From the NCBI GenBank assembly GCA_037146775.1, contig JBAWWL010000006.1:15120-79119 (forward strand): DNA of 64,000 nucleotides. Reading direction: 5' to 3'. The position numbers and the translations under genes are program-made. This DNA is from Candidatus Omnitrophota bacterium. Its GTDB lineage: Bacteria > Omnitrophota > Gorgyraeia > Duberdicusellales > 4484-171. This document shows, piece after piece, positions 7,084 to 64,000 of the stretch; within the stretch, counting starts at the first letter, position 1; each line of letters starts with the position of its first letter. The notes under the pieces were generated by a model. That model was not told the DNA's origin. It saw only the letters and a program-made list of their open reading frames with translations, and ran no database searches.

Positions 7084-7127
7084 AATACCACAGCCCAAAC
7101 AAAAAACCAATAACCCGGCAATCGGGA

Positions 7128-21074: not shown

Positions 21075-22490
21075 TTAAATCAAACCTTCTTCTATCATTG
21101 CAACAAACGTATCAACAACTGCGGGATTAAATTGTGAATGCTTGTTATTTTTAAGCTGCGCGAGCGCCTCTGTCTTGCTTAACGCCGAACGATAGGCACG
21201 ATCGGAAACCATCGCATCATAAGCGTCCGCCACCGATAAAATCGCAGCAAAAATATTAATACTATCTCCTCTTAACCGATCGGGATAGCCTGCTCCGTCA
21301 TAACGCTCATGATGCCCCCTCACTATCGTCAACATTTCTTCGGTAATAAGCACCGGCCTCAACATCTCCTCGCCGATAAGGGGATGTTGCTTAATAATCT
21401 CCCATTCTTTCTCGGTTAAACTTTCTTTTTTATTCAATACACTTTCCTGGATTCCCAACTTACCGATATCGTGGAGAAGAGCAATCTCTCTCAAAAGCTT
21501 GGCCTTTTCGGGAGGAAATCCCATACGCAATGCTATTTTTTCTGCATATACCGCAACCGATTCGGAATGGCCCTTGATATAAGGATCTCGCGCTTCTAAG
21601 ATCCGTACCAGAGACTGCACCACATCGTAAAAGTAGCTCATCAGCTTTTTCTGAGAATCATTGAGAGCTTTTGCCATCCGGTTAAACGACGCCGCCAAAA
21701 GCGCTATTTCGTCGTCGCTCTTTATGTGCACCTGATAATTCAATTCTCCTTTCGCTATACGACGGGTTCCCTCGACCAACTCCTTGATAGGCCGAACAAT
21801 CCGTTTTGACGCAAACATACCCAACAGAAGCGATACCAATATCCCCAATAACAAAACGAGCAACGCGCGAATATGTACTGTTCTCTGAAGCGTGTAAATA
21901 TCACGGGCTTCGATATCGACCCCCACCATCGCAACCGCACGGTTAGCTTTATCGAAGATAGGTGCATAACCCGACAGGGTTACGCCCCACTCATCGATTT
22001 CAAGCTTAATATCTGCCGACGGGCCTTCGAAAGCCTTGGACATCTGAGGAAAACGCGCTACCGCATATCGATCACCGGGATAAGAATGTGTTTGCGCGCC
22101 TTTCTTTTTCCCCATAACCGGGTCGGGATCGGCAATAAACTGCCACACGCCTTCCTGATCTGTCTTGGCCATCGTATAGATATATTTGATAAGCGGATTC
22201 GCCCGCTTAATATCTTTTAATTTTGCAACAACGGTTTTATATGCCGAAGAATCCACCCCTTCTTCGGAGAGCGGTATCGCCATAAGCGTTTGCGCATCTA
22301 TGGCAAACGAAGCCATTTGCGCAATAATCATTAGTTTTTCCCTTAGCTGCTGGAACTGGGAATTAAGGGCAAACCGATAGATCAATAAATTACTTATTGT
22401 CCCCATAAAAAGCATCGAGGCGACTAAAAGTAATGTGACCTTTGCCTGAAAACTGCTCAGAATTCTACGCCATCTACTCATATACACCAT
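21075..22490 (-). CDS. Sensor HD-GYP c-di-GMP phosphodiesterase (periplasmic sensor, TM, HAMP, HD-GYP)
   Basis: HAMP segment; HD motif HDIGKLGIQESV; GYP motif HHERYDGAGYPD; two TM segments flank an extracytoplasmic domain. Confidence 0.8.
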   Translation of the reverse strand: MVYMSRWRRILSSFQAKVTLLLVASMLFMGTISNLLIYRFALNSQFQQLREKLMIIAQMASFAIDAQTLMAIPLSEEGVDSSAYKTVVAKLKDIKRANPLIKYIYTMAKTDQEGVWQFIADPDPVMGKKKGAQTHSYPGDRYAVARFPQMSKAFEGPSADIKLEIDEWGVTLSGYAPIFDKANRAVAMVGVDIEARDIYTLQRTVHIRALLVLLLGILVSLLLGMFASKRIVRPIKELVEGTRRIAKGELNYQVHIKSDDEIALLAASFNRMAKALNDSQKKLMSYFYDVVQSLVRILEARDPYIKGHSESVAVYAEKIALRMGFPPEKAKLLREIALLHDIGKLGIQESVLNKKESLTEKEWEIIKQHPLIGEEMLRPVLITEEMLTIVRGHHERYDGAGYPDRLRGDSINIFAAILSVADAYDAMVSDRAYRSALSKTEALAQLKNNKHSQFNPAVVDTFVAMIEEGLI

Positions 22491-48281: not shown

Positions 48282-49121
48282 TTATTCAAGCCAGTATTTT
48301 GTAAAAAGATACCATTGCTGAGGATATTTTTTCAGATATTTTTCCAAAACTTTCGCGTACGCTTCAAGTACCATTTCTTCGCTGGTTAGTTTTTGTCCCT
48401 GGATATCGATAGGTGCTTCAAATATTAAGCGGTAAAATATTCTTTTTTCCCGCACAAGAAATGCCGGAACGATACAAGCACCCGTTTTAAGCGCAAAAAA
48501 AGCCGGCCCCTTAGGAAGCCTCACTCGATGGCCCATCATGGTTATTTCGAGCCCTCCGCCAAAGAAATCTCTATCGCCCAAAAACGCCACAACGGTAGGC
48601 TCGCGCAACAAAGAAACGCATTTCCTTACCGTCACGCCTGCGGGAATAATATGTATACCGACCATTTTGCGCTGACGATTAAAAAGTTCATTGATACGCT
48701 GATCTTTATGAGGAAGAGCAACCGCGTGTACCGTGTAACCCAAAAGGGACGTAATCGCACCGGCAAGCTCATAATTACCCAGATGTGCGGTCACCGTTAA
48801 TACACCCTTGTTTCCATCGAGCGGCTGGGGCAGATACTCCAGCCCGCTAACGGTTACATATTTTTCAATAAAACGTTTATCCAGCTTTTCATATCGGAAA
48901 AAATCAACTAGGTAATACGCGAAATTGATAAAAACCTCTCGAGCCACACGCTTCGCTTCTTTGGCATCAGGAATAATAGCCGACAGGTTATACATAAGAG
49001 CTTCCCGCTCTTTTCTGGAAAAATAAAATTTAAGCACCGCTATGCACTTTGCGATGCGGTAGCAGAACACACGCGGAAAAATGAGCGTGAGTCTTTTCGC
49101 TAAAACATAAAAATAATACAT
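48282..49121 (-). CDS. LpxL/HtrB-like lysophospholipid acyltransferase
   Basis: 279 aa of the LPLAT superfamily (TAHLGNYE). Confidence 0.6.
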   Translation of the reverse strand: MYYFYVLAKRLTLIFPRVFCYRIAKCIAVLKFYFSRKEREALMYNLSAIIPDAKEAKRVAREVFINFAYYLVDFFRYEKLDKRFIEKYVTVSGLEYLPQPLDGNKGVLTVTAHLGNYELAGAITSLLGYTVHAVALPHKDQRINELFNRQRKMVGIHIIPAGVTVRKCVSLLREPTVVAFLGDRDFFGGGLEITMMGHRVRLPKGPAFFALKTGACIVPAFLVREKRIFYRLIFEAPIDIQGQKLTSEEMVLEAYAKVLEKYLKKYPQQWYLFTKYWLE

Positions 49122-50236
49122 TATAACGCCAATCTGATGATAAGTTCAGCTATACGTAACGAAGAATTCGCAAGCGATATTCTTTTTGCCCGCTCTTTTA
49201 GGCCGAACATATTCTGCGCATCCTCCAAAAGCTTTTTCGCTTCTTCCCCCACTAAAGCGGGCTCGTCCGCTCTGATCACCGCCTGCTTGCTTAAAAGATA
49301 GTTTACATTCCTTTCCTCTTGGCCGGGTATAGGCTTGGTAATAATAATCGCTAGGCCCTTGGCAAGTGCTTCCGAAATAGTAATACCACCGCTTTTAGTG
49401 ACAATAACGTCGGCGACATCCATCAAACGATGTATAAAGTCAACATATTCGAAACAAAATATGGGTTTTTTGAAACGAGATTTATTATCAATGAACCATT
49501 CATATAACTTTTTGTTCTTGCCGCATACCACAATAGTTTGAAAATCACAACTTGAGTCGTCAAGAGTTTGCGCTATCTTCGCTATCGGGCCTATCCCCAA
49601 CCCTCCGCCCATGATCAGAACCGTACGCAATTGTTCGTTGAATCCGAATTCCCTGACTACCTGTTCTCTCGGTTGAGAGGTAAGAAACTTCACAGAAATA
49701 GGAATACCCAATATTTCTATTTTGTCTTCGTTCACCCCTTCACGTATTAATGCCTCTTTCGCCTCGCTACACGCAACAACGTATTTATCAACGGCAGGAT
49801 GCAACCAGAATCCGTGCGGATGGTAATCGGTAACTACGGCAACCAGCGGTATTTTGATACCAAAATGCTTTTTAAAATCAGCGACTAAGCCGCAGGGAAA
49901 TGCCTGAGTAGCCACAAAACAATCAGCGGGAAATTCTTGCAGTAAACGGGACAATGGTTCAAAAGTGCGTTCGTTAACAAACTTACGTAAGGGGTTCAAA
50001 TTTTTTATGATTGGTTTTCGATCATATATACTACCCCACAAATACGGTACATGTTTTATAACGGCGGTATACATGCCGTCCACGAACTTTTCGGTCCGTG
50101 GATAAAAATATCCAAACCCGTTTACGTTACGCAGCAAGAGGCTGGGATCACGCTCCAGGAGCGCTTCTTTGATATTACTCGCTGCCTTGCTGTGGCCGCC
50201 AAATTCAGAAATATAAAACAGTATAATCCTTTTCAC
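49121..50236 (-). CDS. MGDG-synthase/UgtP-like diacylglycerol glycosyltransferase (GT28)
   Basis: The N-terminal MGDG_synth-type domain reads ISEFGGHSKAAS; the C-terminus has a GT-B fold. Confidence 0.7.
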   Translation of the reverse strand: MKRIILFYISEFGGHSKAASNIKEALLERDPSLLLRNVNGFGYFYPRTEKFVDGMYTAVIKHVPYLWGSIYDRKPIIKNLNPLRKFVNERTFEPLSRLLQEFPADCFVATQAFPCGLVADFKKHFGIKIPLVAVVTDYHPHGFWLHPAVDKYVVACSEAKEALIREGVNEDKIEILGIPISVKFLTSQPREQVVREFGFNEQLRTVLIMGGGLGIGPIAKIAQTLDDSSCDFQTIVVCGKNKKLYEWFIDNKSRFKKPIFCFEYVDFIHRLMDVADVIVTKSGGITISEALAKGLAIIITKPIPGQEERNVNYLLSKQAVIRADEPALVGEEAKKLLEDAQNMFGLKERAKRISLANSSLRIAELIIRLAL

Positions 50237-50286: not shown

Positions 50287-51450
50287 TTACGTGCGAAACG
50301 GATAGGCTTTCAGAAATGCATCAACAGCGCAGGGCGCAAACTGCTTTCCTCTATTACGCACTATCTCGGCACGAGCTTGCTCTCGAGAAATACCCTTATG
50401 ATACGGCCTGTCGGTCACCATCGCGTCAAACGTATCGGCAAGGGCAATGATCGAAGCTATCAAGGGAATTTGACGCCCCTTAAGACGGAACGGATAGCCA
50501 TTACCATCATATTTTTCGTGATGATACTTGACCCCCAGTAATACCTCCTGAAACGCCTCGATATGCTCTAAAATAGCCGCACCCACAAGAGGGTGAGTTT
50601 TAACCAATTTCTTTTCTTTTTTGTTTAGCCGCACGTTTTTATGAAGAATGTGTTCCGGAATCCCGATCTTTCCTATATCATGCAAAAGCGCGGCTATGTT
50701 AAGATTCTCCACAAAACGTTCCCAGTTTTTGATAGGTTTGCTCTTGCGCAAAACATGCGCAATATGAAGCGCATATTTTGCCACTCGCTCGGTATGGCCA
50801 ATTGTATATTTATCTTTTGCCTCAATGCTTGAGGCAAGTGACGCGATCGTCTGCAGCAGAAGCCGTTTATTGGCGTCAATTTGGCGGTTAAGATCTTCAA
50901 TGAGCCAGGCATTTTTGAGCGCCATAACTATATCCGAAGCGAGCGTTGAAAGAAAGCTCAGCTCGGCGTCGTGAAATTTTTTTTTATTTGCCTTCTCTCC
51001 CAAAAACAAAACCCCAACCAAGTCATTGCGGAAAAAACCGGGAATACACGCGTGAGCCTGATACGAAAAAAGTGCGTCTTTGACTTCCTCTAAAAATTTC
51101 TTCATTGGGGCATTTTCCCCGATCCCAAAAGACTCACATGCGCCGCTGACCCCATCGGCAGTAATTATTTCTCCGGGGAAATAAATACTTTTATCGGTAA
51201 AACACCTGATAAGAGGATTGTCTTTTCGTATTTTCGCAAAACCAGCCGGTATTTTAAACCCTCGGCTGCCGCGGGAAACCTGCAGCACATATTCATCCCT
51301 TTTTTTATCATAAATAAACATGCCTGCATGGCTCAATCCGACAGCACGGACAATCGTGCGTAAAATCATTTTTATCAACGTATTCGCCCGATGAATCATA
51401 ATAGTCTGACGGGCAGCTTTTTCCAATGCTTTACGATAATCGAGCTTCAT
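50287..51450 (-). CDS. GAF-HD-GYP c-di-GMP phosphodiesterase
   Basis: N-terminal GAF domain; HDIGKIGIPEHILHK and HHEKYDGNGYP motifs. Confidence 0.8.
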   Translation of the reverse strand: MKLDYRKALEKAARQTIMIHRANTLIKMILRTIVRAVGLSHAGMFIYDKKRDEYVLQVSRGSRGFKIPAGFAKIRKDNPLIRCFTDKSIYFPGEIITADGVSGACESFGIGENAPMKKFLEEVKDALFSYQAHACIPGFFRNDLVGVLFLGEKANKKKFHDAELSFLSTLASDIVMALKNAWLIEDLNRQIDANKRLLLQTIASLASSIEAKDKYTIGHTERVAKYALHIAHVLRKSKPIKNWERFVENLNIAALLHDIGKIGIPEHILHKNVRLNKKEKKLVKTHPLVGAAILEHIEAFQEVLLGVKYHHEKYDGNGYPFRLKGRQIPLIASIIALADTFDAMVTDRPYHKGISREQARAEIVRNRGKQFAPCAVDAFLKAYPFRT

Positions 51451-51983: not shown

Positions 51984-53321
51984 CTAAATTAAAGAAAGAT
52001 ATTCCTTCCCTTCCAGGAAAGGGTTTAAGGAGCGCTCGATTTTATAGCCGGGCTTTTTCTCGCTTAAATTAAGTATTCCTTTTTTCTCTGAAGGGACTAG
52101 CACTTCTACGGTAGGAAAAAATATATCTTCCGCATTCTCTTCTCTGACTACGGCAATATAACCGTCCTCAAGAACCACGATAGTACCTCTCGGCCACACC
52201 CCCATTATCTTGAAAAATTTTTCCAAAAGAAAAGGATCAAACGCCCCGGCACTTTCCCGCATCATTAAATCATAAATCATCCGTGGCGGATAATCTCTCT
52301 TGTACGTTCTACGTTGCATCAGCGCATCATACACGTCACAGATCGAAACCAGCAAAGAAATAATATGAGGCTTTTGCTTAAAAGAAAGCTTCGGATACCC
52401 TTTCATATCGTAGCGTAAGTGATGTTCAAACGCCACGACCGCCGGCAACATTCCCAGCGTATCCACATATTGCAAGAGCATCTCGGCCCCCTGGATCGTG
52501 TGACTTTGTATAGTCAAAAATTCTTCGCTCGACAGTTTATCCGGCTTGGTAATAATACGCTTCGATATGTAAATCTTACCGATATCGTGGAATAATGCGG
52601 CAATGCCGACATCCAACATATCATCCTTTGAAAGCCCAAGCATCGCAGCAAAATTCATAGACAGAATCGAAACATTTAAAAGATGCGTAAACGTCGAAAC
52701 ATCATATTTTTTAATCCCTGCAAGTTTAGCAAACTCTTCATAATTACCCACGAGATTATCTACCACCATCATCATGGTAAACTTAAGCCCTACTCCATCC
52801 ACCTCTTTGTTGTCAAGCAGCACATCGACAAACTGAGAAGTCCGCTCTAACGAATTATCATAATAGTCTTGATAACCCGTCGGCTGCACCGCAACGGCTT
52901 CGGACGAAGAAAGCCCGAGTTTACTCACCAGAACATTTCGAATGCCCTGCACAGAAAAATATTCCTGCACATCTTTAGGAGCTTTATCGCGGGTTAACGC
53001 AAGATATTCCACAAATTTTGCTAATTCATCTCTGGACAGGCCACGGTGAAAAATAATTTTTTCTATTCCCCGCTCTTTGAATAAAGAAATAATTAATTTT
53101 GCTTTTTTGCTCAACTCAAAGAAAATTTCTTTTTCAAAAATAAGCTCATCCCCGACCACCCCTATCACCAGTTCTTCTTTTTCGTCTAAGAGTGCGACAA
53201 GACTGGCGTAATTTTTATCAAGAAATTCCATGAATTTAGGATGCGCGGTAGTATAAATCTTAGCTATCTGGAACAAAGACAACAAATCCTTTAAAAAACA
53301 CTCAATCCTTTCGCGCATCAA
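51984..53321 (-). CDS. HD-GYP phosphodiesterase with an N-terminal DUF3391-like domain
   Basis: HDIGKIYISKRIIT and HHLRYDMKGYP motifs; the N-terminal ~120 aa are paralogous to the N-terminus of the upstream 643-aa protein. Confidence 0.75.
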   Translation of the reverse strand: MMRERIECFLKDLLSLFQIAKIYTTAHPKFMEFLDKNYASLVALLDEKEELVIGVVGDELIFEKEIFFELSKKAKLIISLFKERGIEKIIFHRGLSRDELAKFVEYLALTRDKAPKDVQEYFSVQGIRNVLVSKLGLSSSEAVAVQPTGYQDYYDNSLERTSQFVDVLLDNKEVDGVGLKFTMMMVVDNLVGNYEEFAKLAGIKKYDVSTFTHLLNVSILSMNFAAMLGLSKDDMLDVGIAALFHDIGKIYISKRIITKPDKLSSEEFLTIQSHTIQGAEMLLQYVDTLGMLPAVVAFEHHLRYDMKGYPKLSFKQKPHIISLLVSICDVYDALMQRRTYKRDYPPRMIYDLMMRESAGAFDPFLLEKFFKIMGVWPRGTIVVLEDGYIAVVREENAEDIFFPTVEVLVPSEKKGILNLSEKKPGYKIERSLNPFLEGKEYLSLI

Positions 53322-55233
53322 GCTCCTCTATTGTCCGCTTAGCCAAAAAACGTAAGCGACGATTCCAAAAGAATCTTCGCTGAGCCAAACGTCTTAAGTA
53401 CTCCTTCGCCTCTCTTAACCCAACATCGCGGACAATCTTAACATTTTCCTCCAAAAACTTATTCCTAAACCACAACTGATCCGAAAAACTAAGCAGCAAC
53501 TCCGCCGCCTTTTGGCGTTGTCCCTGGTCTTTCATAAGAGCAATCACAGCCTGCTTTTTAATTATTACACCGGACTCCTCCAAAAGCGCATATAAGAAAT
53601 CTGCCTCCAGATAAGAAGCCTGCTCGAGTGCCCGTAATATTTCTAACTTCAGAAAACTGTCACACACATAAAAAATATCCTTTAAAAACTTAAAAGAATA
53701 TATATTATCCACTTTGCATACACTCTCGATAAGCTTTTTCATAAAAGCTATATCATCGACTTTTCTTTTGATACGCTGAAAAAGGGCATCAATTTCGTCA
53801 GGAAAAAATTTTAAAAATAACTCGATAATATAAGAGGTATGGGCACTGCCGCTAAATATCTTATCAATATACGTATCGACGCCAATAGTGCTTTTTTGCA
53901 TATAGCCGACAAAAAAGCCGGGATCAAAACCGATATCATCGCTCAACATCGTCTCTTCCGCAAAAGCGCTAATACGTGTTCCTAATTCCTCAAACCCCTG
54001 GAATTGGGCAACATTTTTCTTTTTTATGTCCTCTAAGGCCGTAGCCAATGTGGTAAGATAAGCAAAATCCTTGTCTTTAACGATAGCATCAAACTCTTTT
54101 ATAATACTATTCGCAACGCGCTGCAGTTGCTCTCCTCTTTTTTCTTGTGTAAGTACATTCAACTGCAGAAGCCGGTAATTTTTCGTAACCAGTTGGCGGT
54201 TGAATGAAATGGCGCCATCCTTAAATGACTCTTCCATAAGAGTGGAGAGGTAACGATGGTATAGCTCGGAAAAAAATGGATCGTCCACCTGAGAGAATAC
54301 TTCGACGACCCTTTTGATCATTGCCGGATTAGCGCGTAACTCGGCTTTTACCTTGTCGGTAAACGCAACAGTAAACGCTTGCCGATATTTCTGACCTAAC
54401 AATTTCGAAAAAAGCACTAAGTTAAGAGGGTCGAATCGTTCATTCGCTGCCATCTCACCCCACAATGTGTCAACAAATTCTTTTTCGGTGGCATATTGCA
54501 AAAATGATTTCAATTGCTCAGTCTTACCTGCATCGAGAGATGCGCGGTCTTGCAACACCGTTCGCAGTAACTTTTTGGTACACCGGTACAACCGCTCCCG
54601 ATCGTTTTCCTTAAGATAAGCAAATAGCTGCTCAACATTTTCTCGAACAGTAGCATCGTCAAAAATCTTTGTGCCAGAAGTGGTTATAAACTTCTCAAAA
54701 TGATCGGCGATATCGGTTATCGCGGGTGCGTTTTTCTTTCCAAGCGCTTCCCTCAAGAGATACCCCCACACATCTGTGCATTCCTCGATTCCTCCGGCCT
54801 GCAGCAACTCTGAATAATCGAGCTCCGTCAATCGGATATGCGTAATATTTTCTTTTCCCAGAATAAAAGACAGTCCTCCCCGTTTAAGAATTTCACTCGG
54901 CATAAGAGCAATACTATTTAAAAAAACTATCAGCTCCTCGACGGTAATGCCCTGGCGTATTTCGATAGTCTTTATTTTTCGGCGATGGAACGCATGTGCG
55001 AGATCTTTATAAAGCTGCTCTCCTTCCCAATATTTTTCAGCACAAAAAAGCGAAACGGGGGTGACGCCGACAGTTAAAGGGTCCGATATAGCCAGAAGAA
55101 CGTATATGCTCTCTTCCAGGCTTTCGACAGATTTGATAAAAGCGGGGTGCTCCTTAAAATAAATAGAAGTAGTATTGAAGGCTACGCGTAGCTTTTTGAA
55201 AAAATCTTCGTATAACGTTTCTCTTTCCATCAA
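53302..55233 (-). CDS. Large alpha-helical hypothetical protein occupying the ftsZ position of the dcw cluster
   Basis: 643 aa with no tubulin GGGTGSG signature. Its N-terminus is homologous to the HD-GYP N-domain. The start overlaps the ftsA stop (ATGA) and the end overlaps the HD-GYP gene. Confidence 0.5.
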   Translation of the reverse strand: MMERETLYEDFFKKLRVAFNTTSIYFKEHPAFIKSVESLEESIYVLLAISDPLTVGVTPVSLFCAEKYWEGEQLYKDLAHAFHRRKIKTIEIRQGITVEELIVFLNSIALMPSEILKRGGLSFILGKENITHIRLTELDYSELLQAGGIEECTDVWGYLLREALGKKNAPAITDIADHFEKFITTSGTKIFDDATVRENVEQLFAYLKENDRERLYRCTKKLLRTVLQDRASLDAGKTEQLKSFLQYATEKEFVDTLWGEMAANERFDPLNLVLFSKLLGQKYRQAFTVAFTDKVKAELRANPAMIKRVVEVFSQVDDPFFSELYHRYLSTLMEESFKDGAISFNRQLVTKNYRLLQLNVLTQEKRGEQLQRVANSIIKEFDAIVKDKDFAYLTTLATALEDIKKKNVAQFQGFEELGTRISAFAEETMLSDDIGFDPGFFVGYMQKSTIGVDTYIDKIFSGSAHTSYIIELFLKFFPDEIDALFQRIKRKVDDIAFMKKLIESVCKVDNIYSFKFLKDIFYVCDSFLKLEILRALEQASYLEADFLYALLEESGVIIKKQAVIALMKDQGQRQKAAELLLSFSDQLWFRNKFLEENVKIVRDVGLREAKEYLRRLAQRRFFWNRRLRFLAKRTIEELDARKD

Positions 55234-56378
55234 AAATATTCTTTATATATCCTGAGAAAACGATGGAAAAACGAATCTTGGCCGCCACGGATTCGCTCAA
55301 GATACCGGCATGCCGCGTAACAGGCGCAACCGTACGACAAAGACTCCCCCACGCCAGCGGCAGCAACAACTACGGATTGCGGTATAAAACTTTTCAAGAA
55401 ATCAGCAAAACCATCCTTTGCATTTAAACGCCCCGTAACAGTGAGGTTAAACTCCTGAGGTACATCTTTACGGATAGCTTCTATGATAACGTTTATTTCA
55501 TTCTTTATGTATTCCTTAACAAATGAATTGACGGTATTCGTACTCACGTTAAGATACGTATCTGCGTTTTTGATACTTACCTCTTTAAAATACGGCAACT
55601 CCCGGAATGATATATAGCGATCAAATACCTCTTGGGATAAAGACACAGGAATGAAATGTTTCTTTGCCAGCTCCTGCAAGATACTTTTTAAACCGAAAGC
55701 AAATTCCTGCACGCACAAAAGATTTCCTTCTACAAATATCGCGACATTACTTTTTTCGTAACCAATGTCAATAATACCGGCGGCGTTTGCCGAAATCAAT
55801 TGTGTGCCGTTTGCGGAAACCGAACTTGCGGCTGCAAAAATCATACCACCCAGCTTTTTCTCTAGATGCGAGAATACCCCCTCTATATCCTTACGAAATG
55901 CATCTTTTACCCACACAAGAAGCGATTTCAACTTTATTTTTTTCGCAACCACGCCCACAGGCGGCCGCACATAGCTTTTCCCTTCAACTTCATAACGCAG
56001 CACAAAATGATGCATACAAAAATCATCCCAGTCTAGATACGCGTCTTCGACATATTTTTTCGTAAATAAAATATCGCCGGAGGTGATTTTTTTACGTTTC
56101 CCTAAAGGAACTATGGATTCAACCACGCGCCGCTGTTCCAGCCCCCATGGGACATTGAGATACACCGTATCGACAGAAATAGAGAGCGCTCGAGCCTCTT
56201 CCTCTATAGCCTTGACAATAGCCGCCGCGTTCGCTTGCAGAAAATGAGAAAAGTTGTTACCATCAAAAGGTATAGCCAATTGCGTTTCGCGCAGACAATA
56301 CGCTTCGGACTTCGCCAGCCTCACCAGCGAAAAAAAAGTTTTATCCGGCCTGACATCTATGCCGCAAACCATTTTCAT
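55230..56378 (-). CDS. ftsA: FtsA-like actin-fold cell-division ATPase
   Basis: Actin/Hsp70-fold motifs (VCGIDV..., GIIDIGYEKSNVAIF, NLTVTGRLNA). The C-terminal amphipathic segment reads FFHRFLRIYKEYF. Overlaps ftsQ by 4 nt. Confidence 0.6.
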   Translation of the reverse strand: MKMVCGIDVRPDKTFFSLVRLAKSEAYCLRETQLAIPFDGNNFSHFLQANAAAIVKAIEEEARALSISVDTVYLNVPWGLEQRRVVESIVPLGKRKKITSGDILFTKKYVEDAYLDWDDFCMHHFVLRYEVEGKSYVRPPVGVVAKKIKLKSLLVWVKDAFRKDIEGVFSHLEKKLGGMIFAAASSVSANGTQLISANAAGIIDIGYEKSNVAIFVEGNLLCVQEFAFGLKSILQELAKKHFIPVSLSQEVFDRYISFRELPYFKEVSIKNADTYLNVSTNTVNSFVKEYIKNEINVIIEAIRKDVPQEFNLTVTGRLNAKDGFADFLKSFIPQSVVVAAAGVGESLSYGCACYAACRYLERIRGGQDSFFHRFLRIYKEYF

Positions 56379-57127
56379 CGTCTGTATCCCACGTATGCTT
56401 TCCTATAACGCAAATCAATATACTCAACCAAAGAAAGATCGCCCCTAAGCTGCTCTTTCAAAAGGTTTTCCAGAATGTAGAGTTTACGGGAAAATTCCTC
56501 TTTGCCAATAATCACTTTTGTATCTCCCATCATAAAATAAAAACTCTGCGGCTGCGTCGTATTAATCGCCGTAACAGGAAACTTTCTAAACACTTTATGC
56601 TTATTCAATTCGTCACTTAAGATAACCGCCGCAGTTAACCGTGGGTCTTTGAGACGCATTCCTCTGCGCAGACGAAAATGATAATCAGCCACCTCCAAGA
56701 GAATGATATTTTGAAATGCGCGAGAAGAAGGATCGCTCGTGATCACCCCTTCTCTGTCAATCAAACAAAAACCTTGGCTGGTGAGCTGTGCAAACGGCTT
56801 TCTTGTTTTAATATCTATGCGCACCGCCGAAGGAAATTCCTTGGTAATATGTATTTCTTTATATTCGGGATGAATAGTACGTATATATGTATAAATGTTT
56901 TTCGCAGGTAAATGGAAAAGGGATACGCCTAATAACCGCGTCTTAATGCTTTCCTCTATCGTAATATTCGCGCGCACCTGCCGTACGATAAAGAAGTTGC
57001 TCGCAAGAATTCGTATCGCACAAAACAACGCCAGCACGATAAGAACCAGCGACGCCCCTATCCACGCAAAAAAAGGGTTAAACTGAGAACTAACTTTTCC
57101 TGACTTCTTGAAATTGTTTTTTTTCAT
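56375..57127 (-). CDS. ftsQ: Cell-division protein FtsQ/DivIB
   Basis: N-terminal TM anchor; POTRA-like region; located between ddl and ftsA. Confidence 0.65.
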   Translation of the reverse strand: MKKNNFKKSGKVSSQFNPFFAWIGASLVLIVLALFCAIRILASNFFIVRQVRANITIEESIKTRLLGVSLFHLPAKNIYTYIRTIHPEYKEIHITKEFPSAVRIDIKTRKPFAQLTSQGFCLIDREGVITSDPSSRAFQNIILLEVADYHFRLRRGMRLKDPRLTAAVILSDELNKHKVFRKFPVTAINTTQPQSFYFMMGDTKVIIGKEEFSRKLYILENLLKEQLRGDLSLVEYIDLRYRKAYVGYRR

Positions 57128-58043
57128 TGAGGGCTAACCAAACCATTCTTGCGACAAGTTCATCAAAGCTAATCCCACAGCACCGAGCCGAAAGCGGCAG
57201 GAGACTGTGAGTGGTCAACCCGGGTATAGAATTTACCTCTAAAACATATACGGCGTTGTCGGTCCGCAGACGTATATCCACCCGAGAAAAATGTTTACAC
57301 CCTAAAGCCTGATGTGCGCGTAAAGCTTCTTCCTGTATGCATTGATAAAGTACGTCGTCTAATTGTGCAGGGACAACAAATTCGGCTAAACCATCACTAT
57401 ATTTCGTTGTAAAATCAAAATATCCTTTTTTTGGAATAATTTCAACAACCGCCAAGGGTTTTTCTTCTAAAATACCGACCGTAAATTCCCGGCCTTCAAT
57501 ATATTCTTCTATGACTACCTTGTTTTGAAACGCACAGGCTTTGCCCAGGGCTGCAGGAAGAGATCCCGCGTCGGTTACAACGGAAACACCCAGGCTGGAG
57601 CCGGCAAAATACGGTTTCACCACCACCGGATAGGTGATACCATACGGTATACCCTTCCCTTCCTCGTAAACTAAAAAGCCGGGGGTGGGTACTTTGCATT
57701 TTATAAACATCTTTTTTGAAAATATTTTATTCATAGCCAAATAGCTCGCTGCCTGCCCCGAACCGGTGTAAGTAATCGAAACCTCGTCAAGAATTTTCTG
57801 AATGCGACCATCTTCCCCAAACTCACCATGAAGAGCGATAAAAGCTACGTCGATATTGCTTGCAGATAAAAGCTCTTTCACTTTTTCCGGTTCGCAGGTT
57901 ACGATATCGATAAAGACAGAGCGAACATTGTTTCTTCGTAACGCGTTATAAGCTTCCTGACCTGAAATAAGAGATATTTCTCGCTCTCCCGACACCCCTC
58001 CGGCTAAAACACCCACCGTAAGACTATCTGGAATTAATCCCAT
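57090..58043 (-). CDS. ddl: D-alanine--D-alanine ligase
   Basis: 317 aa with ATP-grasp architecture; VGVLAGGVSGEREISLISG N-terminus. Confidence 0.85.
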   Translation of the reverse strand: MGLIPDSLTVGVLAGGVSGEREISLISGQEAYNALRRNNVRSVFIDIVTCEPEKVKELLSASNIDVAFIALHGEFGEDGRIQKILDEVSITYTGSGQAASYLAMNKIFSKKMFIKCKVPTPGFLVYEEGKGIPYGITYPVVVKPYFAGSSLGVSVVTDAGSLPAALGKACAFQNKVVIEEYIEGREFTVGILEEKPLAVVEIIPKKGYFDFTTKYSDGLAEFVVPAQLDDVLYQCIQEEALRAHQALGCKHFSRVDIRLRTDNAVYVLEVNSIPGLTTHSLLPLSARCCGISFDELVARMVWLALNEKKQFQEVRKS

Positions 58044-58921
58044 CGTTGAATTTCCTCCTCTAACATAACGCCAAATTTATGATATACCGCATCCTTGATA
58101 TGGCCTATAAGATAATTTACATCGTCGCATGAAGCATTTTTAAGATTGATAATAAAATTTGCATGCCTCATCGAAATCTGAGCGTCGTTTTTCTTCAAAC
58201 CCTTCAAGCCGCAGGCATCAATAAGAAAACCGGCTGCCGCGCTGGCTGTGTTTTTAAAAATACAGCCACAACTAGGATATTGATAATCCTGAGTCTTCAT
58301 GCGCTCTCTAATGTAATACCCCACAGACGCTTTTATATTTGCGGTACGCGGTAAAACAAACCATGCGCGTAATACTATTGATTCTTGCAACGAAGACTGC
58401 CGATACCCAAGTGTGATTTCTTCTTTTGGTATTTTTTTCACTGTACCATTTACATCCATAACCTCAATTTCTTTTAAGAAATGTGTTACGCCTCTGCCGA
58501 AAGCCGACGCATTCATCGCGATGAGGCCACCGACAGTCGCCGGGATAGCCGCCAAGTTATCAAAACCGGCAAGTTTATGTTGTATCGTATAGCGTATAAC
58601 TTTTGAAAGCATAGTACATGCGCCAACTTCCAAGGTAGTATCAACGGAAGTTATATAGTCGAAGCCTCCGCCCAGCTTTATCACTGCTTTCTTAATCGGC
58701 CCATCGCTGGCCAAAAGGTTTGAACCACCGCCCAATAAATAATACGCGCCTTGCAGCCGCTTAACTACTTTTTGTAACCCTTCCATATTATGCGCGATAA
58801 AGAAAAAAGGCACCTGACCGCCTATTTTTATGGTGGTAAGATGTTTTAAAACGCAATTATGCCTTAACTCTAGAGCGCTCGAACTCATTAACAATACCAT
58901 CCATAATAGTGTTGATATCAC
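58034..58921 (-). CDS. murB: UDP-N-acetylenolpyruvoylglucosamine reductase
   Basis: FAD-binding motifs (TIKIGG, LLGGGSNLL); start may be at 58888. Confidence 0.85.
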   Translation of the reverse strand: MISTLLWMVLLMSSSALELRHNCVLKHLTTIKIGGQVPFFFIAHNMEGLQKVVKRLQGAYYLLGGGSNLLASDGPIKKAVIKLGGGFDYITSVDTTLEVGACTMLSKVIRYTIQHKLAGFDNLAAIPATVGGLIAMNASAFGRGVTHFLKEIEVMDVNGTVKKIPKEEITLGYRQSSLQESIVLRAWFVLPRTANIKASVGYYIRERMKTQDYQYPSCGCIFKNTASAAAGFLIDACGLKGLKKNDAQISMRHANFIINLKNASCDDVNYLIGHIKDAVYHKFGVMLEEEIQRWD

Positions 58922-60236
58922 CCGCCCCTAAACCCATCACCAGATCCCCTGGTTCTAGCCGGGGAGGAATGATATCGACAAGTTCCTCTTTGGCCACATG
59001 CTGTATGTTACCTCTAAAATATTTTTTAATCTCCTCCAGGAGAAAATGCGCGTCTACGCCCGCGATTGGTTTCTCTGACGCCGCATAAATATCCGTCACG
59101 ATCAACTCATCAACAGCGCCAAAGCAACGCGCAAATTCTTTATAAAGCGCTTCAACACGAGAAAAACGATGCGGTTGAAAGATAACAAAAAGACGCTTCG
59201 GCCGCAAATACCGCGCTGCGTTAAGCACTGCGGCTATTTCGGTAGGATGGTGTGCATAATCATCAACAAAAATAACATCGTTTAGTTTCTTCTTAACCTG
59301 AAAACGCCTTTTCGTCCCCTTGAAACCCTTCAAAAGGTTTACTACTTTAGCTACGTCCTCGCCCATATACAAGAAAAAGGAAATAACCGCAAGTGTATTT
59401 AAAACATTGTGCGTACCTAAAAGCGGTATACTCACAGGGCATATATATATATGGTCCACAAAAAGATCAAAACAAGTAAAATTCCCGTCAAACGTAACAT
59501 TAGCGGCGCTTACTTTATTATGCGCCCCAAAACCATAAAGAGTTCCTCCTGCTTTCTGCACAATATCCATAACTGTCGGTTCGTCTCCGCAGCCGATAAC
59601 CATACCTTTTGTTTGGTACGCAAACTGCAAAAAGCTTTTCTGTAAATCCTCTATCGTACGATAATAATCAAGATGTTCATGGTCTATATTGGTAATGATC
59701 GACACCCACGGATTATAATATAAAAAACTTCCGTCGCTTTCGTCGGTTTCAATAACGAAATAATCCTGTCCCCACCACGCATGGCGTGCATAATTCAAAG
59801 GCAATCCTCCCACAAAAACAGTGGGCTCATACCCCAAAGAAGTCATTAAATAGCCGATTAAGGAAGTAGTGGTGGTCTTGCCGTGGCTGCCGCTTACAGC
59901 GATAGCTTTCTTATCCCAGGAAAGCAATCCTAAAAGTTTACCGCGGGGTAAAATCGTCACCCCTCTTCTTTGCGCTTCTTGAATTTCCGGGTTATCCTGT
60001 TTGATGGCCGAAGAATAACACACCAGGTCAACATCAGCGCTCATATGCTCGCTGCAATGTCCGATAAAAACCTCAATACCGTTTTCCCGAAGCAACTTAA
60101 TCGTATAGTTTTCGTGCACATCTGAACCGCTGACATTAAACCCCTTATCTTTTAAAAGAAGCGCCAGGCCGCCCACCCCGATACCGCCGATACCTACAAG
60201 ATAGATATGTTTTACTCCTGATAGAACTGCTTCCAT
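58857..60236 (-). CDS. murC: UDP-N-acetylmuramate--L-alanine ligase
   Basis: 459 aa; IYLVGIGGIGVGGLA; Mur ligase P-loop GSHGKTTTT. Confidence 0.9.
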   Translation of the reverse strand: MEAVLSGVKHIYLVGIGGIGVGGLALLLKDKGFNVSGSDVHENYTIKLLRENGIEVFIGHCSEHMSADVDLVCYSSAIKQDNPEIQEAQRRGVTILPRGKLLGLLSWDKKAIAVSGSHGKTTTTSLIGYLMTSLGYEPTVFVGGLPLNYARHAWWGQDYFVIETDESDGSFLYYNPWVSIITNIDHEHLDYYRTIEDLQKSFLQFAYQTKGMVIGCGDEPTVMDIVQKAGGTLYGFGAHNKVSAANVTFDGNFTCFDLFVDHIYICPVSIPLLGTHNVLNTLAVISFFLYMGEDVAKVVNLLKGFKGTKRRFQVKKKLNDVIFVDDYAHHPTEIAAVLNAARYLRPKRLFVIFQPHRFSRVEALYKEFARCFGAVDELIVTDIYAASEKPIAGVDAHFLLEEIKKYFRGNIQHVAKEELVDIIPPRLEPGDLVMGLGAGDINTIMDGIVNEFERSRVKA

Positions 60237-60997
60237 TGCGTCTCTAGCTCCTCCCTGCCGTTGATGGAACTGTAACTTTTTGATAAAGCCTCGTCAAAGC
60301 CACAGCCTTGACGTAAAAAATACAATACATTATAAAAGTTATCACCCGAACCTTTCTTGATAAGAAAATGTATAATGGAATATGACTGGAGATAAAAAAC
60401 ATCAACATATTCTTTAGGCTTACCGTCAAGTGTTGCGGGCCCCATCTGATACAATTCTGAAAACGGTATGTATTGATTGTGTTCAATGGTTGTTTTTAGG
60501 GTTGAAAGTTCTGCCTCATAGGAACTACCCCCGTGTTTAGCATCAACATACATCGCAACGCCTTCATCAAACCACAGCGGTAATTTTCCCTCACCAACAT
60601 ATTCGCGAAAAATGATGTGCACCAACTCATGGCGCAGCAGCGAAGAAAAGTTATCTTGATGGGGATACGTATAAATTGTTTTTTGCCGGTAGTCCACGCA
60701 GGCGCCCGACCATTCGGAACAAGGAAAGCTGGCAAGATAATCGTTTTTGTCTTTCGCTATAATAATTTTTGCCCGGTTATCCCACAACCACAAGGTATCC
60801 CGCACGAGGCGAAATTCCTGAGTGACGCTTTTATAAAAATCCTCAGCCATGTCTTTGACGGTATACACATAGCTTTCGTCTAATTCTCGAGGCGAAATGA
60901 TCACGAAATGGTCTGAACGTAATTCCTTTTGATCGCTAGCTTCTACCGGCATACTCACCACACACATACCCACGAGCATGAACACAAAATTCTTCAA
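60212..60997 (-). CDS. Secreted HExxH zinc-metallopeptidase-like protein (Peptidase_MA-like)
   Basis: Signal peptide; HELVHIIF...LWFDEGVAMY (HExxH plus a downstream Glu); paralogue of 62021-62815; overlaps the murG 3' end. Confidence 0.5.
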   Translation of the reverse strand: MKNFVFMLVGMCVVSMPVEASDQKELRSDHFVIISPRELDESYVYTVKDMAEDFYKSVTQEFRLVRDTLWLWDNRAKIIIAKDKNDYLASFPCSEWSGACVDYRQKTIYTYPHQDNFSSLLRHELVHIIFREYVGEGKLPLWFDEGVAMYVDAKHGGSSYEAELSTLKTTIEHNQYIPFSELYQMGPATLDGKPKEYVDVFYLQSYSIIHFLIKKGSGDNFYNVLYFLRQGCGFDEALSKSYSSINGREELETQWKQFYQE

Positions 60998-61997
60998 ATG
61001 GCACCCCCAGCCGTACGGTTCTTAACTTTGCCGCTATCTCACGTTGCAGATCGCCGTTAAAAAGAAGTTTCTTTACAGTATCACGAAATATATGAAACGA
61101 AAAATCATGCTGCATCATTACAAACGCTGCTCCCTGCCGTGTAAGATACTCAGCGTTCTGCCGCTGATGCCCTCCGGCTGCCGGATGCGGAATAAGCACC
61201 GACGGCAATGCATAATAACAAATTTCTGCTATGGTGGAAGCGCCCGATCTGGCAATCACCACGCTCGCGGCGCTATAGAGCAATTCCATCTCATAGTAAA
61301 AACTACGCACTAATGCCTTTTGTTCTATTGTATTATACATTTTCGAAATTTCAAAGTATTCTCTTTCGCCGGTCAAATGAATGATTTGATAGGAACCGTG
61401 AAGGTCTGAAACGAGTCGCATGAAAATGCTGTTCAAAAAAGAAGAACCCTGGCTTCCGCCAAAACAAAGAATTACCGGTATATCATCAAAACCCAACGCA
61501 CACAAAGCTTCCTTCCTGGAAATTTTCCTTATATTAGAACGCAAGGGTATACCGATGGTTTTTTCCTTAGGTTTTTGCCCTCCCTCCTCAAACCCTCGCC
61601 AGATGTTACGAACGAATAGCGACAAAATCCGGTTTGCCTTGCCAAAAGTAACGTTAGGCTCATATATCACTGTATTAAGTAAAAATAAGGAGCCGAACAA
61701 TATTAAGAAAAAACTGTCCCTACCTCCAAAACCAATGACCACCTGCGGCCTTAACCGCGCTATCAGATAAAGAGCCTCAACGGCACGATAAGGCAACTCC
61801 AGAAAAATATTTCTTGAACGAAAACTCTTGCCATACACCGCAAACGCCTCTTTGACTACATAGGCCTTAAGAGAATCTGAGGTTACAAAAAATGAGATAT
61901 GCATTGCTTGGGCGGGCGGCTGGCTAAGGCACTTCCCTAATGTCAGTGCAGGAAATATGTGCCCGCCGCTCCTATCACATGCCAGTAAAACTCTCAT
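60936..61997 (-). CDS. murG: Undecaprenyldiphospho-muramoylpentapeptide beta-N-acetylglucosaminyltransferase
   Basis: 353 aa with a GT28 fold; the N-terminus reads MRVLLACDRSGGHIFPAL. Confidence 0.85.
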   Translation of the reverse strand: MRVLLACDRSGGHIFPALTLGKCLSQPPAQAMHISFFVTSDSLKAYVVKEAFAVYGKSFRSRNIFLELPYRAVEALYLIARLRPQVVIGFGGRDSFFLILFGSLFLLNTVIYEPNVTFGKANRILSLFVRNIWRGFEEGGQKPKEKTIGIPLRSNIRKISRKEALCALGFDDIPVILCFGGSQGSSFLNSIFMRLVSDLHGSYQIIHLTGEREYFEISKMYNTIEQKALVRSFYYEMELLYSAASVVIARSGASTIAEICYYALPSVLIPHPAAGGHQRQNAEYLTRQGAAFVMMQHDFSFHIFRDTVKKLLFNGDLQREIAAKLRTVRLGVPFEEFCVHARGYVCGEYAGRS

Positions 61998-62020
61998 ATT
62001 TTATATACACCTCTGGAATG

Positions 62021-62815
62021 CTACAAAAGATAAAACCTTCGCCATGACTCTTCAAATTGAGCCATACCGTCTATCCCGTTAAAAGACTTTCTCAACGCAT
62101 CATCAAGGCTATTACCATCTTTAAGATAACTCAAAAATTCACTGAAATCTTCACGGCTGAAACGTTTTATCAAAAAATAGACCATGCAAAATGCCTGCGC
62201 ATAGAAAAGCCCAACATCGGTATTGTTACCAAGGGTATAAATGCCGTTGATATCGGAAAATTTCAGGTATCGGTTGCCCGGTATCAACTGCTTCATCAGC
62301 GAAACAGCGGATTGCTCATTGAGTGAATCACGATATTCGATGTACTGGGCCATTCCTTCGTCCAGCCATAACGGTAAACGGTTATAACCGACGTATTCAC
62401 GAAAAATAATATGGGTCAGCTCATGGGAGAGTATACGGGAGAAGTTTTCTTGCCCCGGAAACGTATACATTATCCTGTTATAGTAATCTACGCAAGCACC
62501 TGACCATTCTGGGCAGCCAAAAGCCCGCACGTAAGTCTCTTTGTCTTTCGCTATAACTATCTGCGCCCTATTGCTCCACGCCCACAATGCCGCCCTGGTA
62601 AGCCCAAACTCCTGAACAATTTTACGATAAAAATATTCTGCGTCGTCCTTGATTTTATAAACTATAGTTTCTGCTTGTGGCGCATAAAGTATTACAAAAT
62701 GATCGGAACGTAATTCTTTATACTCTTTTGTCTGCGCGTCTACCCTTAAAGATGCGGTAGCGCTCCAGAGAATCGCCACCGCCATAACTATCGCTTTCTT
62801 CATGCGCACCCCCAT
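62021..62815 (-). CDS. Secreted HExxH zinc-metallopeptidase-like protein (Peptidase_MA-like), paralogue
   Basis: Signal peptide; HELTHIIF...LWLDEGMAQYI; about 50% identical to 60212-60997. Confidence 0.5.
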   Translation of the reverse strand: MGVRMKKAIVMAVAILWSATASLRVDAQTKEYKELRSDHFVILYAPQAETIVYKIKDDAEYFYRKIVQEFGLTRAALWAWSNRAQIVIAKDKETYVRAFGCPEWSGACVDYYNRIMYTFPGQENFSRILSHELTHIIFREYVGYNRLPLWLDEGMAQYIEYRDSLNEQSAVSLMKQLIPGNRYLKFSDINGIYTLGNNTDVGLFYAQAFCMVYFLIKRFSREDFSEFLSYLKDGNSLDDALRKSFNGIDGMAQFEESWRRFYLL

Positions 62816-62824
62816 TATCCGACA

Positions 62825-63949
62825 CTATGTCAAATCTTCTTCACTTCGAGAGGCATTAAAAAACAGTCCAAGCAAAACATAGTGCACAATAAGATTACTG
62901 CCGCCATAGCTCACAAAAGGAAGCGGCAACCCTTTCGTAGGAAAAAGACCGCAGCTTACGCCCATATTAACAGCTATCTCTAAAAAGAAAATAAGTATCA
63001 CCCCTAAAAGAATACTCTGACGAAAATCATCCCGGCAGTTTTTAGCGATATCTATCATTCTGTGAAAAAGAACTAAAAAGACGGCTACGAGCCCAAGCGA
63101 ACCAAGCAAACCGAATTCCTCTGCGATAATGGAAAAAATAAAATCGGTGTGGGCGGCCGGAAGAAAAAACAGTTTCTGCCTCCCTTCTCCCAATCCTACA
63201 CCCCACAGCCCTCCCTGGCCATACGCAATTTGGGATTGGATTAACTGGAAACCCGCATCACGCGGGTCCGCAAAAGGATTAAGATAGCCGGTAATTCTTC
63301 GAAAACGATAGGGATAAAATGTGATAAGGAAAAAAGAAAGAATAGCTCCGAGAGCAATAACAAAAAGCAGGTGCCGGCCGCGCGCATGATGCATAAAAAG
63401 AAAAAGAAGCGTCCAGACGATCCAAAACATTGCAGTTCCCAGATCGGGCTGTAATACCACCGATACGCATATCAATCCCATAACGATACCTAGGGGGATC
63501 AAAGTTCTGGCTTTTCTGATCAGCATTTTCCTCTTTATGACATAATCAACGCAATACATTAAAAAGAAAATTTTTAGCAACTCGGAAGGTTGGAAATTGA
63601 ACCCGCCAAGAGTAAACCATCGCCGCGCACCGCCGGCTTTTTTACCGATTATCAAAAGTACGAGTAAAATAAAAATTGTCGCAAACAAAAATTCTTTCGC
63701 ATGCGCACGCAAAAAATCAAGATCACACAAAAGTGTCAGGAAGAATAGTACCAATCCCGCTATAAAGAAAATAAACTGCTTCTTAAAGAAAGAGGCAGGA
63801 TCGGATGTAGTTTTGTACGCATAAAGGCTGGAAGATTCGTACACCATAAGCGTACCGAAAAGCGTCAGGAACAATACCAGTAGAAAAATGAACCTGCGCT
63901 CCTTGCGCAAATCTTTCGGATGAGCAACGCTTACATATGAATCGTACAT
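62825..63949 (-). CDS. ftsW: SEDS-family peptidoglycan polymerase FtsW
   Basis: 374 aa, 10 TM, FtsW/RodA family; position upstream of murG. Confidence 0.85.
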   Translation of the reverse strand: MYDSYVSVAHPKDLRKERRFIFLLVLFLTLFGTLMVYESSSLYAYKTTSDPASFFKKQFIFFIAGLVLFFLTLLCDLDFLRAHAKEFLFATIFILLVLLIIGKKAGGARRWFTLGGFNFQPSELLKIFFLMYCVDYVIKRKMLIRKARTLIPLGIVMGLICVSVVLQPDLGTAMFWIVWTLLFLFMHHARGRHLLFVIALGAILSFFLITFYPYRFRRITGYLNPFADPRDAGFQLIQSQIAYGQGGLWGVGLGEGRQKLFFLPAAHTDFIFSIIAEEFGLLGSLGLVAVFLVLFHRMIDIAKNCRDDFRQSILLGVILIFFLEIAVNMGVSCGLFPTKGLPLPFVSYGGSNLIVHYVLLGLFFNASRSEEDLT

Positions 63950-64000
63950 ATTTGCAGTTTGACGGCCACTAGGCCCATAAACTATTCACTGTCTCTATAA

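Follow-up and report, generated by a model that had tools for sequence, protein, structure and literature searches.

Few gene arrangements in bacteria are as conserved as the division and cell wall (dcw) cluster, and it is rare for an addition to it to persist across a phylum. The known wall peptidases belong to the M14, M15, M23, M74, NlpC/P60, S11-13, S66 and YkuD groups. The Pfam family Peptidase_MA_2 (PF13485), equivalent to the NCBI name "peptidase MA family metallohydrolase", is an uncharacterised catch-all of clan MA marked by HExxH and a downstream Glu; our literature search recovered no characterised member of PF13485, the family name appearing only in a passing mention. In the present work, we describe two genes of this family, designated pepA and pepB, that occupy the murG/murC and ftsW/murG slots, respectively, of the dcw cluster in a 64,000-nucleotide (nt) stretch of DNA from the metagenome-assembled genome of an uncultivated Candidatus Omnitrophota bacterium (assembly GCA_037146775.1, contig JBAWWL010000006.1, positions 15,120 to 79,119 of the forward strand; hereafter the window). 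The literature search likewise found no description of a peptidase inside the Omnitrophota dcw cluster. A study of dcw conservation in the Planctomycetes-Verrucomicrobia-Chlamydiae group reports an intact wall pathway with no mention of this gene (PMC12283558), and the same holds for a report on 176 complete genomes of Omnitrophota, which describes these organisms as host-dependent (bioRxiv 10.64898/2026.06.07.730766). Our analyses indicate that pepA and pepB very probably encode exported, catalytically intact zinc peptidases whose production is tied to that of FtsW, MurG and MurC. The family assignment itself is already public, and the novelty lies in the apparent recruitment of a known catalytic scaffold to the dcw cluster, as one of its conserved genes and under translational coupling.

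The closest described systems share parts of this picture. The M1 aminopeptidases (viz. aminopeptidase N, PepN, LTA4 hydrolase and ERAP1/2) have the same pair of catalytic helices, with HExxH followed after about 18 residues by (W)L(N/D)EG and by a Tyr 50-65 residues further on; pepA and pepB differ from them in having neither the beta domain at the N-terminus nor the helical domain at the C-terminus, and in the absence of GxMEN, the corresponding strand being WSGACV. Membership of M1 was rejected on these grounds, each protein being a single domain of 260 amino acids (aa) that scores below the cutoff of PF01433 (20.5 and 12.8 bits against 27.7). The peptidase domain of the M9 collagenases is the best fold match to pepB, and the flagellinolysin model of NCBIfam gives a weak match (E 3e-10, 40 bits), but the activator domain of M9 is absent from pepA and pepB. 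Membership of M9 or of the flagellinolysins was also rejected (PF01752, 11.8 and 15.7 bits against 26; NF033876, 27 and 40 bits against 205). The zinc-binding Glu of M9 enzymes lies about 28-30 residues after HExxH, compared with 17-19 in the dcw peptidases. The wall "space-maker" endopeptidases (viz. MepM of M23, MepS of NlpC/P60 and TagX of M15), which are exported and open the wall for new material or for machines, provide a working analogy, although their folds and catalytic types are unrelated to those of pepA and pepB and their families are undetected there. A further comparison is offered by the C-terminal gluzincin toxin domain (DUF4157) of VgrG2b from Pseudomonas aeruginosa, a thermolysin-like enzyme of the periplasm that causes septal blebbing and, instead of being a general hydrolase of the wall, is suspected of acting on lipoproteins (PMC6899460). 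As this effect shows, the integrity of the septal wall can be disturbed by an MA(E) peptidase in the periplasm. The VgrG2b toxin is of another family, is delivered into rivals and is accompanied by an immunity protein, whereas the pep genes lie in a housekeeping operon with no adjacent small open reading frame (ORF) resembling an immunity gene.

Two minus-strand genes of about 260 codons lie on either side of murG, exactly where the preliminary description of this DNA had placed them, and the features of this part of the cluster are as follows.

62825-63949, minus strand: ftsW (Pfam FTSW_RODA_SPOVE, 2e-100), ending 21 nt short of the pepB ATG at 62803
62807-62813, minus strand: Shine-Dalgarno-like GGGGGTG for pepB, 3 nt upstream of the ATG at 62803
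62021-62815, minus strand: pepB, ftsW/murG slot, 264-aa ORF; Peptidase_MA_2 gluzincin with predicted export
62411-62425, minus strand: HELTH motif of pepB (H131, E132 and H135 in the numbering of the 264-aa ORF)
62357-62359, minus strand: E153 of pepB, predicted third zinc ligand; the invariant Tyr is Y205
60936-61997, minus strand: murG (Pfam Glyco_transf_28 and Glyco_tran_28_C, 1e-29), starting 23 nt after the pepB stop
61002-61008, minus strand: Shine-Dalgarno-like GGGGGTG for pepA, 4 nt upstream of the TTG at 60997 and within the 3' end of murG
60212-60997, minus strand: pepA, murG/murC slot, 261 aa, TTG start; Peptidase_MA_2 gluzincin with predicted export
60617-60631, minus strand: HELVH motif of pepA (H123, E124 and H127)
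60563-60565, minus strand: E145 of pepA, predicted third zinc ligand; the invariant Tyr is Y202
58857-60236, minus strand: murC (Pfam Mur ligase domains), with a 25-nt overlap between its 5' end and the 3' end of pepA

The true start of pepB is likely the ATG at 62803, which gives a protein of 260 aa matching the NCBI protein P0001; pepB is 100% identical to this protein, which is named "peptidase MA family metallohydrolase", and pepA corresponds to P0041 from the same contig as P0001. From 53.3 kb to the end of the window every gene is on the minus strand and forms the distal part of the dcw cluster, in which murC is followed on its 3' side by murB, ddl, ftsQ, a divergent ftsA-like gene and a gene for a 643-aa protein without assignment. 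The proximal half was read from contig CAZTHQ010000006.1 (GCA_964613555.1), an exact protein match to the window, and the full cluster runs mraZ-rsmH-(119 aa)-ftsI-murE-murF-mraY-murD-ftsW-pepB-murG-pepA-murC-murB-ddl-ftsQ-ftsA-like-(642 aa)-HD.

Both pep genes are contiguous with their neighbours on the same strand: pepB is set off by gaps of 21 and 23 nt, while pepA shares 62 nt with the 3' end of murG and 25 nt with the 5' end of murC. These junctions leave no space for internal promoters or terminators, a consensus scan of them found no convincing intergenic promoter or terminator, and an identical GGGGGTG heptamer precedes both genes. The lack of promoter or terminator space, the two overlaps and the shared heptamer together argue that the pep genes are integral to the dcw operon, and the base composition is uniform across the region, so that nothing in it points to a recent foreign insertion. 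Rfam and tRNA scans of the window gave no matches. Terminator-like hairpins number 21 in the interval 53000-64000, compared with 12.0 +/- 3.9 in shuffled sequence, though the region reads as one operon; several of them fall within coding sequence, for example at 60636-60618 over the HELVH codons of pepA.

Both proteins exceed the gathering cutoff of PF13485 (38.5 bits for pepA and 49.2 bits for pepB; cutoff 32.4), and they share 45% identity across 265 columns (BLASTP E 7e-80), which makes them paralogues far beyond chance. The paralogy, the family and the motifs that had been read from the sequence (HELVHIIF followed by DEGVA in pepA, HELTHIIF followed by DEGMA in pepB) are thereby all upheld. 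Homologues from genome loci keep the HExxH motif, the downstream Glu and a Tyr without exception (86/86), the spacing from HExxH to Glu being 17-19 residues in this set and 17 in pepA and pepB. An alignment of 39 diverse homologues shows H131, E132, H135, E153, Y205, W78, W104, W150, W258, F40 and E60 to be invariant (pepB ORF numbering). The dcw peptidases form a tight, full-length subfamily of 330 representatives at E<=1e-30 that is distinguished from PF13485 at large by its conserved place in the dcw cluster and by N-terminal motifs of its own (viz. S-x-H-F, W-x-W-x-N-R and W-S). The large clade to which the window belongs also conserves a pair of Cys residues (C101 and C108 in pepB, C93 and C100 in pepA), which may form a disulfide, as would fit a periplasmic protein. 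On the basis of these sequence features, pepA and pepB are predicted to be gluzincin-type metallopeptidase homologues in which HExxH and Glu, as the third ligand, hold the zinc, and the invariant Tyr is probably the stabiliser of the transition state; peptidase activity and zinc binding, like the substrate discussed below, are predicted properties.

The invariance of the catalytic residues bears directly on the idea that these proteins are non-catalytic structural or regulatory partners, binding through a peptidase fold in the manner of the degenerate LytM factors EnvC and NlpD. Degenerate regulators with hydrolase folds are common in division, and two paralogues encoded in one operon could form a pair, but such regulators normally lose their catalytic residues, whereas HExxH, Glu and Tyr are retained here in every homologue, including both copies of each two-copy genome. 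We consider this explanation very improbable.

An AlphaFold2 model of pepB was obtained with high confidence (pLDDT, the predicted local distance difference test, 92.5; pTM, the predicted template modelling score, 0.85). It comprises a beta/alpha N-subdomain (strands within 33-118) and a helical C-subdomain, with the predicted ligands on helices 125-142 and 149-161. A Foldseek search of the PDB placed the peptidase domains of M9 collagenases at the top (4ar8, E 5e-7; 7zbv and 9cme, TMq 0.60-0.61), with TMq 0.55-0.61 over the three, followed by M1 aminopeptidases and LTA4 hydrolase; all of these matches are at 12-18% identity, and the M9 and M1 catalytic domains match at a Foldseek probability of 1.00. 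A profile search of PDB sequences retrieved M1 enzymes only (E ~2e-3), aligning HELtHiif...lPlWldEG with HELAHQWF...LWLNEG. The only viral fold matches are baculovirus enhancins, which are generic gluzincins, and a PHROGs search returned no match. In the model, pepB has a thermolysin-like two-subdomain gluzincin fold, which is supported by these matches to M9 and M1 catalytic domains. The model thus depicts a minimal gluzincin catalytic domain with an M1-like layout of the zinc site. The absence of GxMEN and of the M1 flanking domains, together with the sub-threshold scores for PF01433, makes an open-cleft endopeptidase more likely than an aminopeptidase.

Both N-termini consist of a short basic stretch, a hydrophobic stretch (Kyte-Doolittle hydropathy 1.6-2.0) and a V-x-A site, followed by a conserved KELRSDHF; the putative signal-peptidase I sites are MKNFVFMLVGMCVVSMPVEA|S in pepA and MKKAIVMAVAILWSATASLRVDA|Q in pepB. 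By the same hydropathy heuristic on which these signal segments were judged, a hydrophobic N-terminus is found in 73/86 homologues. The mature proteins of about 28 kDa have no further hydrophobic segment, and we infer that both are exported as soluble periplasmic proteins, an uncleaved signal anchor being a possible alternative to a cleaved signal. A lipoprotein reading was rejected, a lipobox being absent from 83/86 homologues and the LVGMC of pepA not constituting one.

Homologues of pepA and pepB are nearly all from metagenome-assembled genomes of Candidatus Omnitrophota, and several are already labelled "peptidase MA family metallohydrolase" by NCBI. In an exhaustive profile search of 1.84 billion representatives, the number of clusters rose from 330 at E<=1e-30 to 4,708 at E<=1e-10 and to 16,864 at E<=1e-3, and nearly all of the best 150 are single-domain proteins of 255-290 aa. 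A scan of the GTDB species genomes for the family gave 79 loci with 84 homologous genes, onto which the dcw proteins of the window were mapped. The murG/murC slot holds 62 of these genes and a further 3 that are truncated, and these span both deep clades of the Omnitrophota; 6/84 are in the ftsW/murG slot, always beside a murG/murC copy in the same genome, and 13/84 are elsewhere. This sample was selected through the peptidase itself, and the test was therefore repeated in metagenome contigs with MurG as the anchor. The peptidase directly follows murG in 53 of the 73 informative loci, murC does so in 19/73 and an ftsQ-like gene in 1/73. Of the 17 loci with a MurG that shares at least 44% identity with that of the window, 15 carry the peptidase, and of the 113 loci with both murG and murC, 95 show the order murG-pep-murC.

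A tree of MurG and MurC places peptidase-positive loci in both deep clades, while the negatives comprise a few separate deep branches and tips nested among positives (L095, L119, L126, L128, L135 and L158). Judging by this tree, the murG-pep-murC order is ancestral to a large part of the Omnitrophota and was then lost several times. The stop of the peptidase gene overlaps the start of murC in 92/98 loci, by exactly 25 nt in 48 and by 22 nt in 27, a conserved overlap that argues for long-standing translational coupling. The ftsW-pep-murG copy is found only in the small clade of the window (the window itself, L001-L004, L011 and L015; L080 and L081 are apparently duplicates of the L004 and L001 contigs). 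The expectation that the insertions recur in related genomes is therefore borne out, but the two positions, which had been presented as equivalent, are not: the murG/murC slot is ancient and widespread, and the ftsW/murG slot is confined to one small clade.

In neighbour-joining trees, which were built without support values, pepA from genomes with two copies clusters with genes from neighbouring lineages that have a single copy (near L013, and also with L043 and L007-L010), as the tree of ftsW, murG and murC predicts. This agreement suggests that pepA is the vertical orthologue in the ancestral position. The pepB sequences make up a separate clade, next to genes from the basal lineages L005, L006, L018 and L020, and pepB may have arisen either by an older duplication followed by losses or by transfer from a different lineage of the Omnitrophota. 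The idea of a recent tandem duplication was rejected, since the copies are only 45% identical and fall in separate groupings of the trees. Ratios of nonsynonymous to synonymous substitution rates (dN/dS), which are approximate because dS is near saturation, amount to 0.054-0.085 for pepB, 0.086-0.133 for pepA and 0.085-0.150 for murG, and both copies are under purifying selection. A search for specificity changes found five positions with fixed differences between the pepA and pepB groups, none of them near the catalytic motifs.

The conservation of the slot is also the main evidence on whether these genes are passengers, i.e. secreted peptidases that serve nutrition, upkeep of the surface or the attack of host or prey cells and that ride a strongly and constitutively expressed operon with no role in wall synthesis. 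Unrelated genes are inserted in other dcw clusters, such as the dca genes of Neisseria, and the Omnitrophota are thought to be host-dependent or predatory. The repeated loss of the gene and the occurrence of the family in many other contexts, including operons resembling a type II secretion system (T2SS) from which it might be secreted as cargo, fit such a role, as does the host-dependence described for the phylum (bioRxiv 10.64898/2026.06.07.730766). Against this, the slot is kept across both deep clades with the 22-25 nt overlap with murC in 75/98 loci, dN/dS is as low as that of murG, and the second copy was gained in the same operon and not elsewhere. A neutral passenger is not expected to hold a slot for so long, and we regard this explanation as unlikely.

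Outside the dcw cluster, the 13 remaining copies have varied neighbourhoods, most of them related to the envelope, which include the following.

L046:3627-4409 and L049:6977-7768: distant family members inside a T2SS/type IV pilus-like operon, in the order GspE-GspF-pep-GspG-pseudopilins-PilM/N
L051: peptidase adjoining a pseudopilin-like gene
L044: peptidase adjoining YggT
L064: peptidase adjoining a SurA-like peptidyl-prolyl isomerase
L074:4353-5150 and 6962-7780: two Peptidase_MA_2 genes around a 636-aa Dpy19-like (GT-C type) membrane protein, the second followed by DNA polymerase I
L050, L053, L056 (6935-7717), L068 and L069: surface-type protein of about 1,950-1,990 aa (1,553 aa in L053 and cut off in L050), unassigned protein of about 230 aa, peptidase, GGDEF response regulator and F-type ATP synthase
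L065: peptidase adjoining 2-oxoacid dehydrogenase and luciferase-like monooxygenase genes

The paralogue linked to the ATP synthase forms a separate clade and is found in genomes that also keep the dcw copy (L053 with L057, and L068 with L066). Ten longer relatives were scanned for additional domains, and one each was found with a TPR domain, a thioredoxin/AhpC domain and an N-terminal zinc ribbon. The rare thioredoxin/AhpC fusion fits a periplasmic location.

Regarding function, our tentative preference is for an exported endopeptidase that acts on wall peptides, or on material attached to the wall, during growth or division. The dedicated cell-wall or division-site hydrolase that the preliminary description had put forward is a proposal from gene neighbourhood, viz. 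the conserved slot among the lipid II genes and the gain of a second copy in the same operon. A peptidase whose gene accompanies those of wall synthesis usually has the wall as its target. Trans-envelope machines often carry a wall-opening hydrolase of their own, such as the M15 endopeptidase TagX of the type VI secretion system, and the distant relatives in T2SS/pilus operons can be read as a pointer to a wall role, the wall being the obstacle common to both settings. If this is correct, pepA and pepB would be small, soluble, Sec-exported zinc endopeptidases that are translated in step with FtsW, MurG and MurC. In the periplasm they would act on the peptides of the wall or on material that is joined covalently to the wall, and the opening of cross-links or trimming of stems would allow the insertion of strands derived from lipid II and the separation of daughter cells. 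The pepA gene would represent the ancestral, phylum-wide copy and pepB an extra copy of one clade, which may divide the work with pepA or serve as its partner subunit. An extended form of this proposal, in which the family is a new class of peptidoglycan endopeptidase with a gluzincin fold (clan MA, HExxH+E), the first of its clan, wired through translational coupling into the operon for lipid II synthesis of an entire phylum, and in which the relatives in T2SS and pilus operons serve those machines as wall-openers, appears to us rather unlikely.

A number of observations weigh against action on the wall. We know of no HExxH gluzincin of clan MA that has been shown to cleave peptidoglycan. When pepA and pepB were compared with Pfam and NCBIfam at E<=1, no match to M23, M15, M14, M74, NlpC/P60, S11-13, S66, YkuD or penicillin-binding protein-type families was obtained; a trace of MltB (E 0.07, 12 bits against a cutoff of 281) was judged meaningless. 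The mature proteins are acidic (pI 5.2 and 5.7), unlike many hydrolases that bind the wall, and no LysM, SPOR, PG_binding or SH3 domain was found in the ten longer relatives. The peptidase-negative loci nested in positive clades indicate that the gene is dispensable or replaceable, and there are paralogues beside genes for ATP synthase and GGDEF proteins, DNA polymerase I and 2-oxoacid dehydrogenase. In addition, the nearest relatives in sequence and fold all cut ordinary L-peptides or proteins.

The last point leads to a different substrate, viz. that these are processing or quality-control proteases of the periplasm, cleaving FtsI, FtsQ/L/B, a wall hydrolase, an envelope lipoprotein or an outer-membrane protein and regulating the wall indirectly. 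Each of the close neighbours (M9, M1, the flagellinolysin-like proteins and the enhancins) cuts ordinary peptides, and the embedding in the operon and its conservation would fit a protease equally well. Prc processes the C-terminus of FtsI, and NlpI-Prc and CtpA degrade wall endopeptidases. The TPR-fused relatives P0272 and P0111 resemble the architecture of BepA, which belongs to a different family (M48), and VgrG2b produces septal blebbing without general hydrolysis of the wall (PMC6899460). On the other side, no candidate substrate has been identified, and most members are bare catalytic domains with no module for protein recognition. Proteases that act on the divisome are not normally encoded in dcw clusters, whereas peptidases directed at the wall are often linked to wall-synthesis operons. 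This reading is the main rival, and we hold a role in protein processing to be only slightly less likely than action on the wall.

Should the wall-directed endopeptidase reading that we tentatively prefer hold, a new catalytic class would join the few enzymes that open peptidoglycan for growth, and a functional handle would be provided on thousands of unannotated Peptidase_MA_2 proteins. If the substrate is instead a protein of the divisome or the envelope, proteolytic control would be built into the operon itself. The practical value of these results is moderate, as the family is already in public annotation and its function is a matter of inference.

Several loci carry taxonomic labels that disagree with their sequences. 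A complete dcw cluster (L042) is present in a bin labelled as a Methanosarcinales archaeon, Omnitrophota-type sequences were obtained from bins labelled Aenigmatarchaeota (P0075) and Entotheonellaceae (L065), and many loci are labelled "uncultured Planctomycetia"; these labels probably reflect mis-binning or mislabelling. An association of Omnitrophota with methanogens has been reported, which makes the cases from archaeal bins noteworthy.

The region at the distal end of the cluster has unusual features of its own. The gene at the ftsA position (55230-56378, minus strand) is very divergent, with only a sub-threshold match to SHS2_FTSA (E 0.0036, 18 bits against 25.4) and no entry in the precomputed Pfam listing. 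It is followed, in the usual place of ftsZ and with a 4-nt overlap with ftsA, by the gene for the 643-aa protein (53302-55233, minus strand), which has no significant Pfam match and for which tblastn finds counterparts at this position in over 25 loci of the Omnitrophota (26-33% identity). An AlphaFold2 model of this protein (pLDDT 82.5) shows an alpha-solenoid of the HEAT/ARM-like type, with a small alpha/beta domain at the N-terminus, and matches generic solenoids only (viz. karyopherins and SF3b), not tubulin or FtsZ. A search of the window and of the 79 genome loci with an Escherichia coli FtsZ query found no FtsZ-like sequence, and ftsZ may well be elsewhere in the genome.

Three genes on the minus strand of the window encode HD_5 (HD-GYP-like) proteins (50287-51450, 51984-53321 and 21075-22490), one with a GAF domain and one with a HAMP domain. 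Two of them are directly downstream of the dcw cluster, and the one at 51984-53321 overlaps the gene for the 643-aa protein by 20 nt, which suggests that cyclic-nucleotide signalling is linked to the end of the operon. The HD genes are followed at 48282-50236 (minus strand) by a glycosyltransferase resembling monogalactosyldiacylglycerol synthase and a lipid A biosynthesis acyltransferase, indicating that genes for envelope lipids continue downstream of the dcw cluster.

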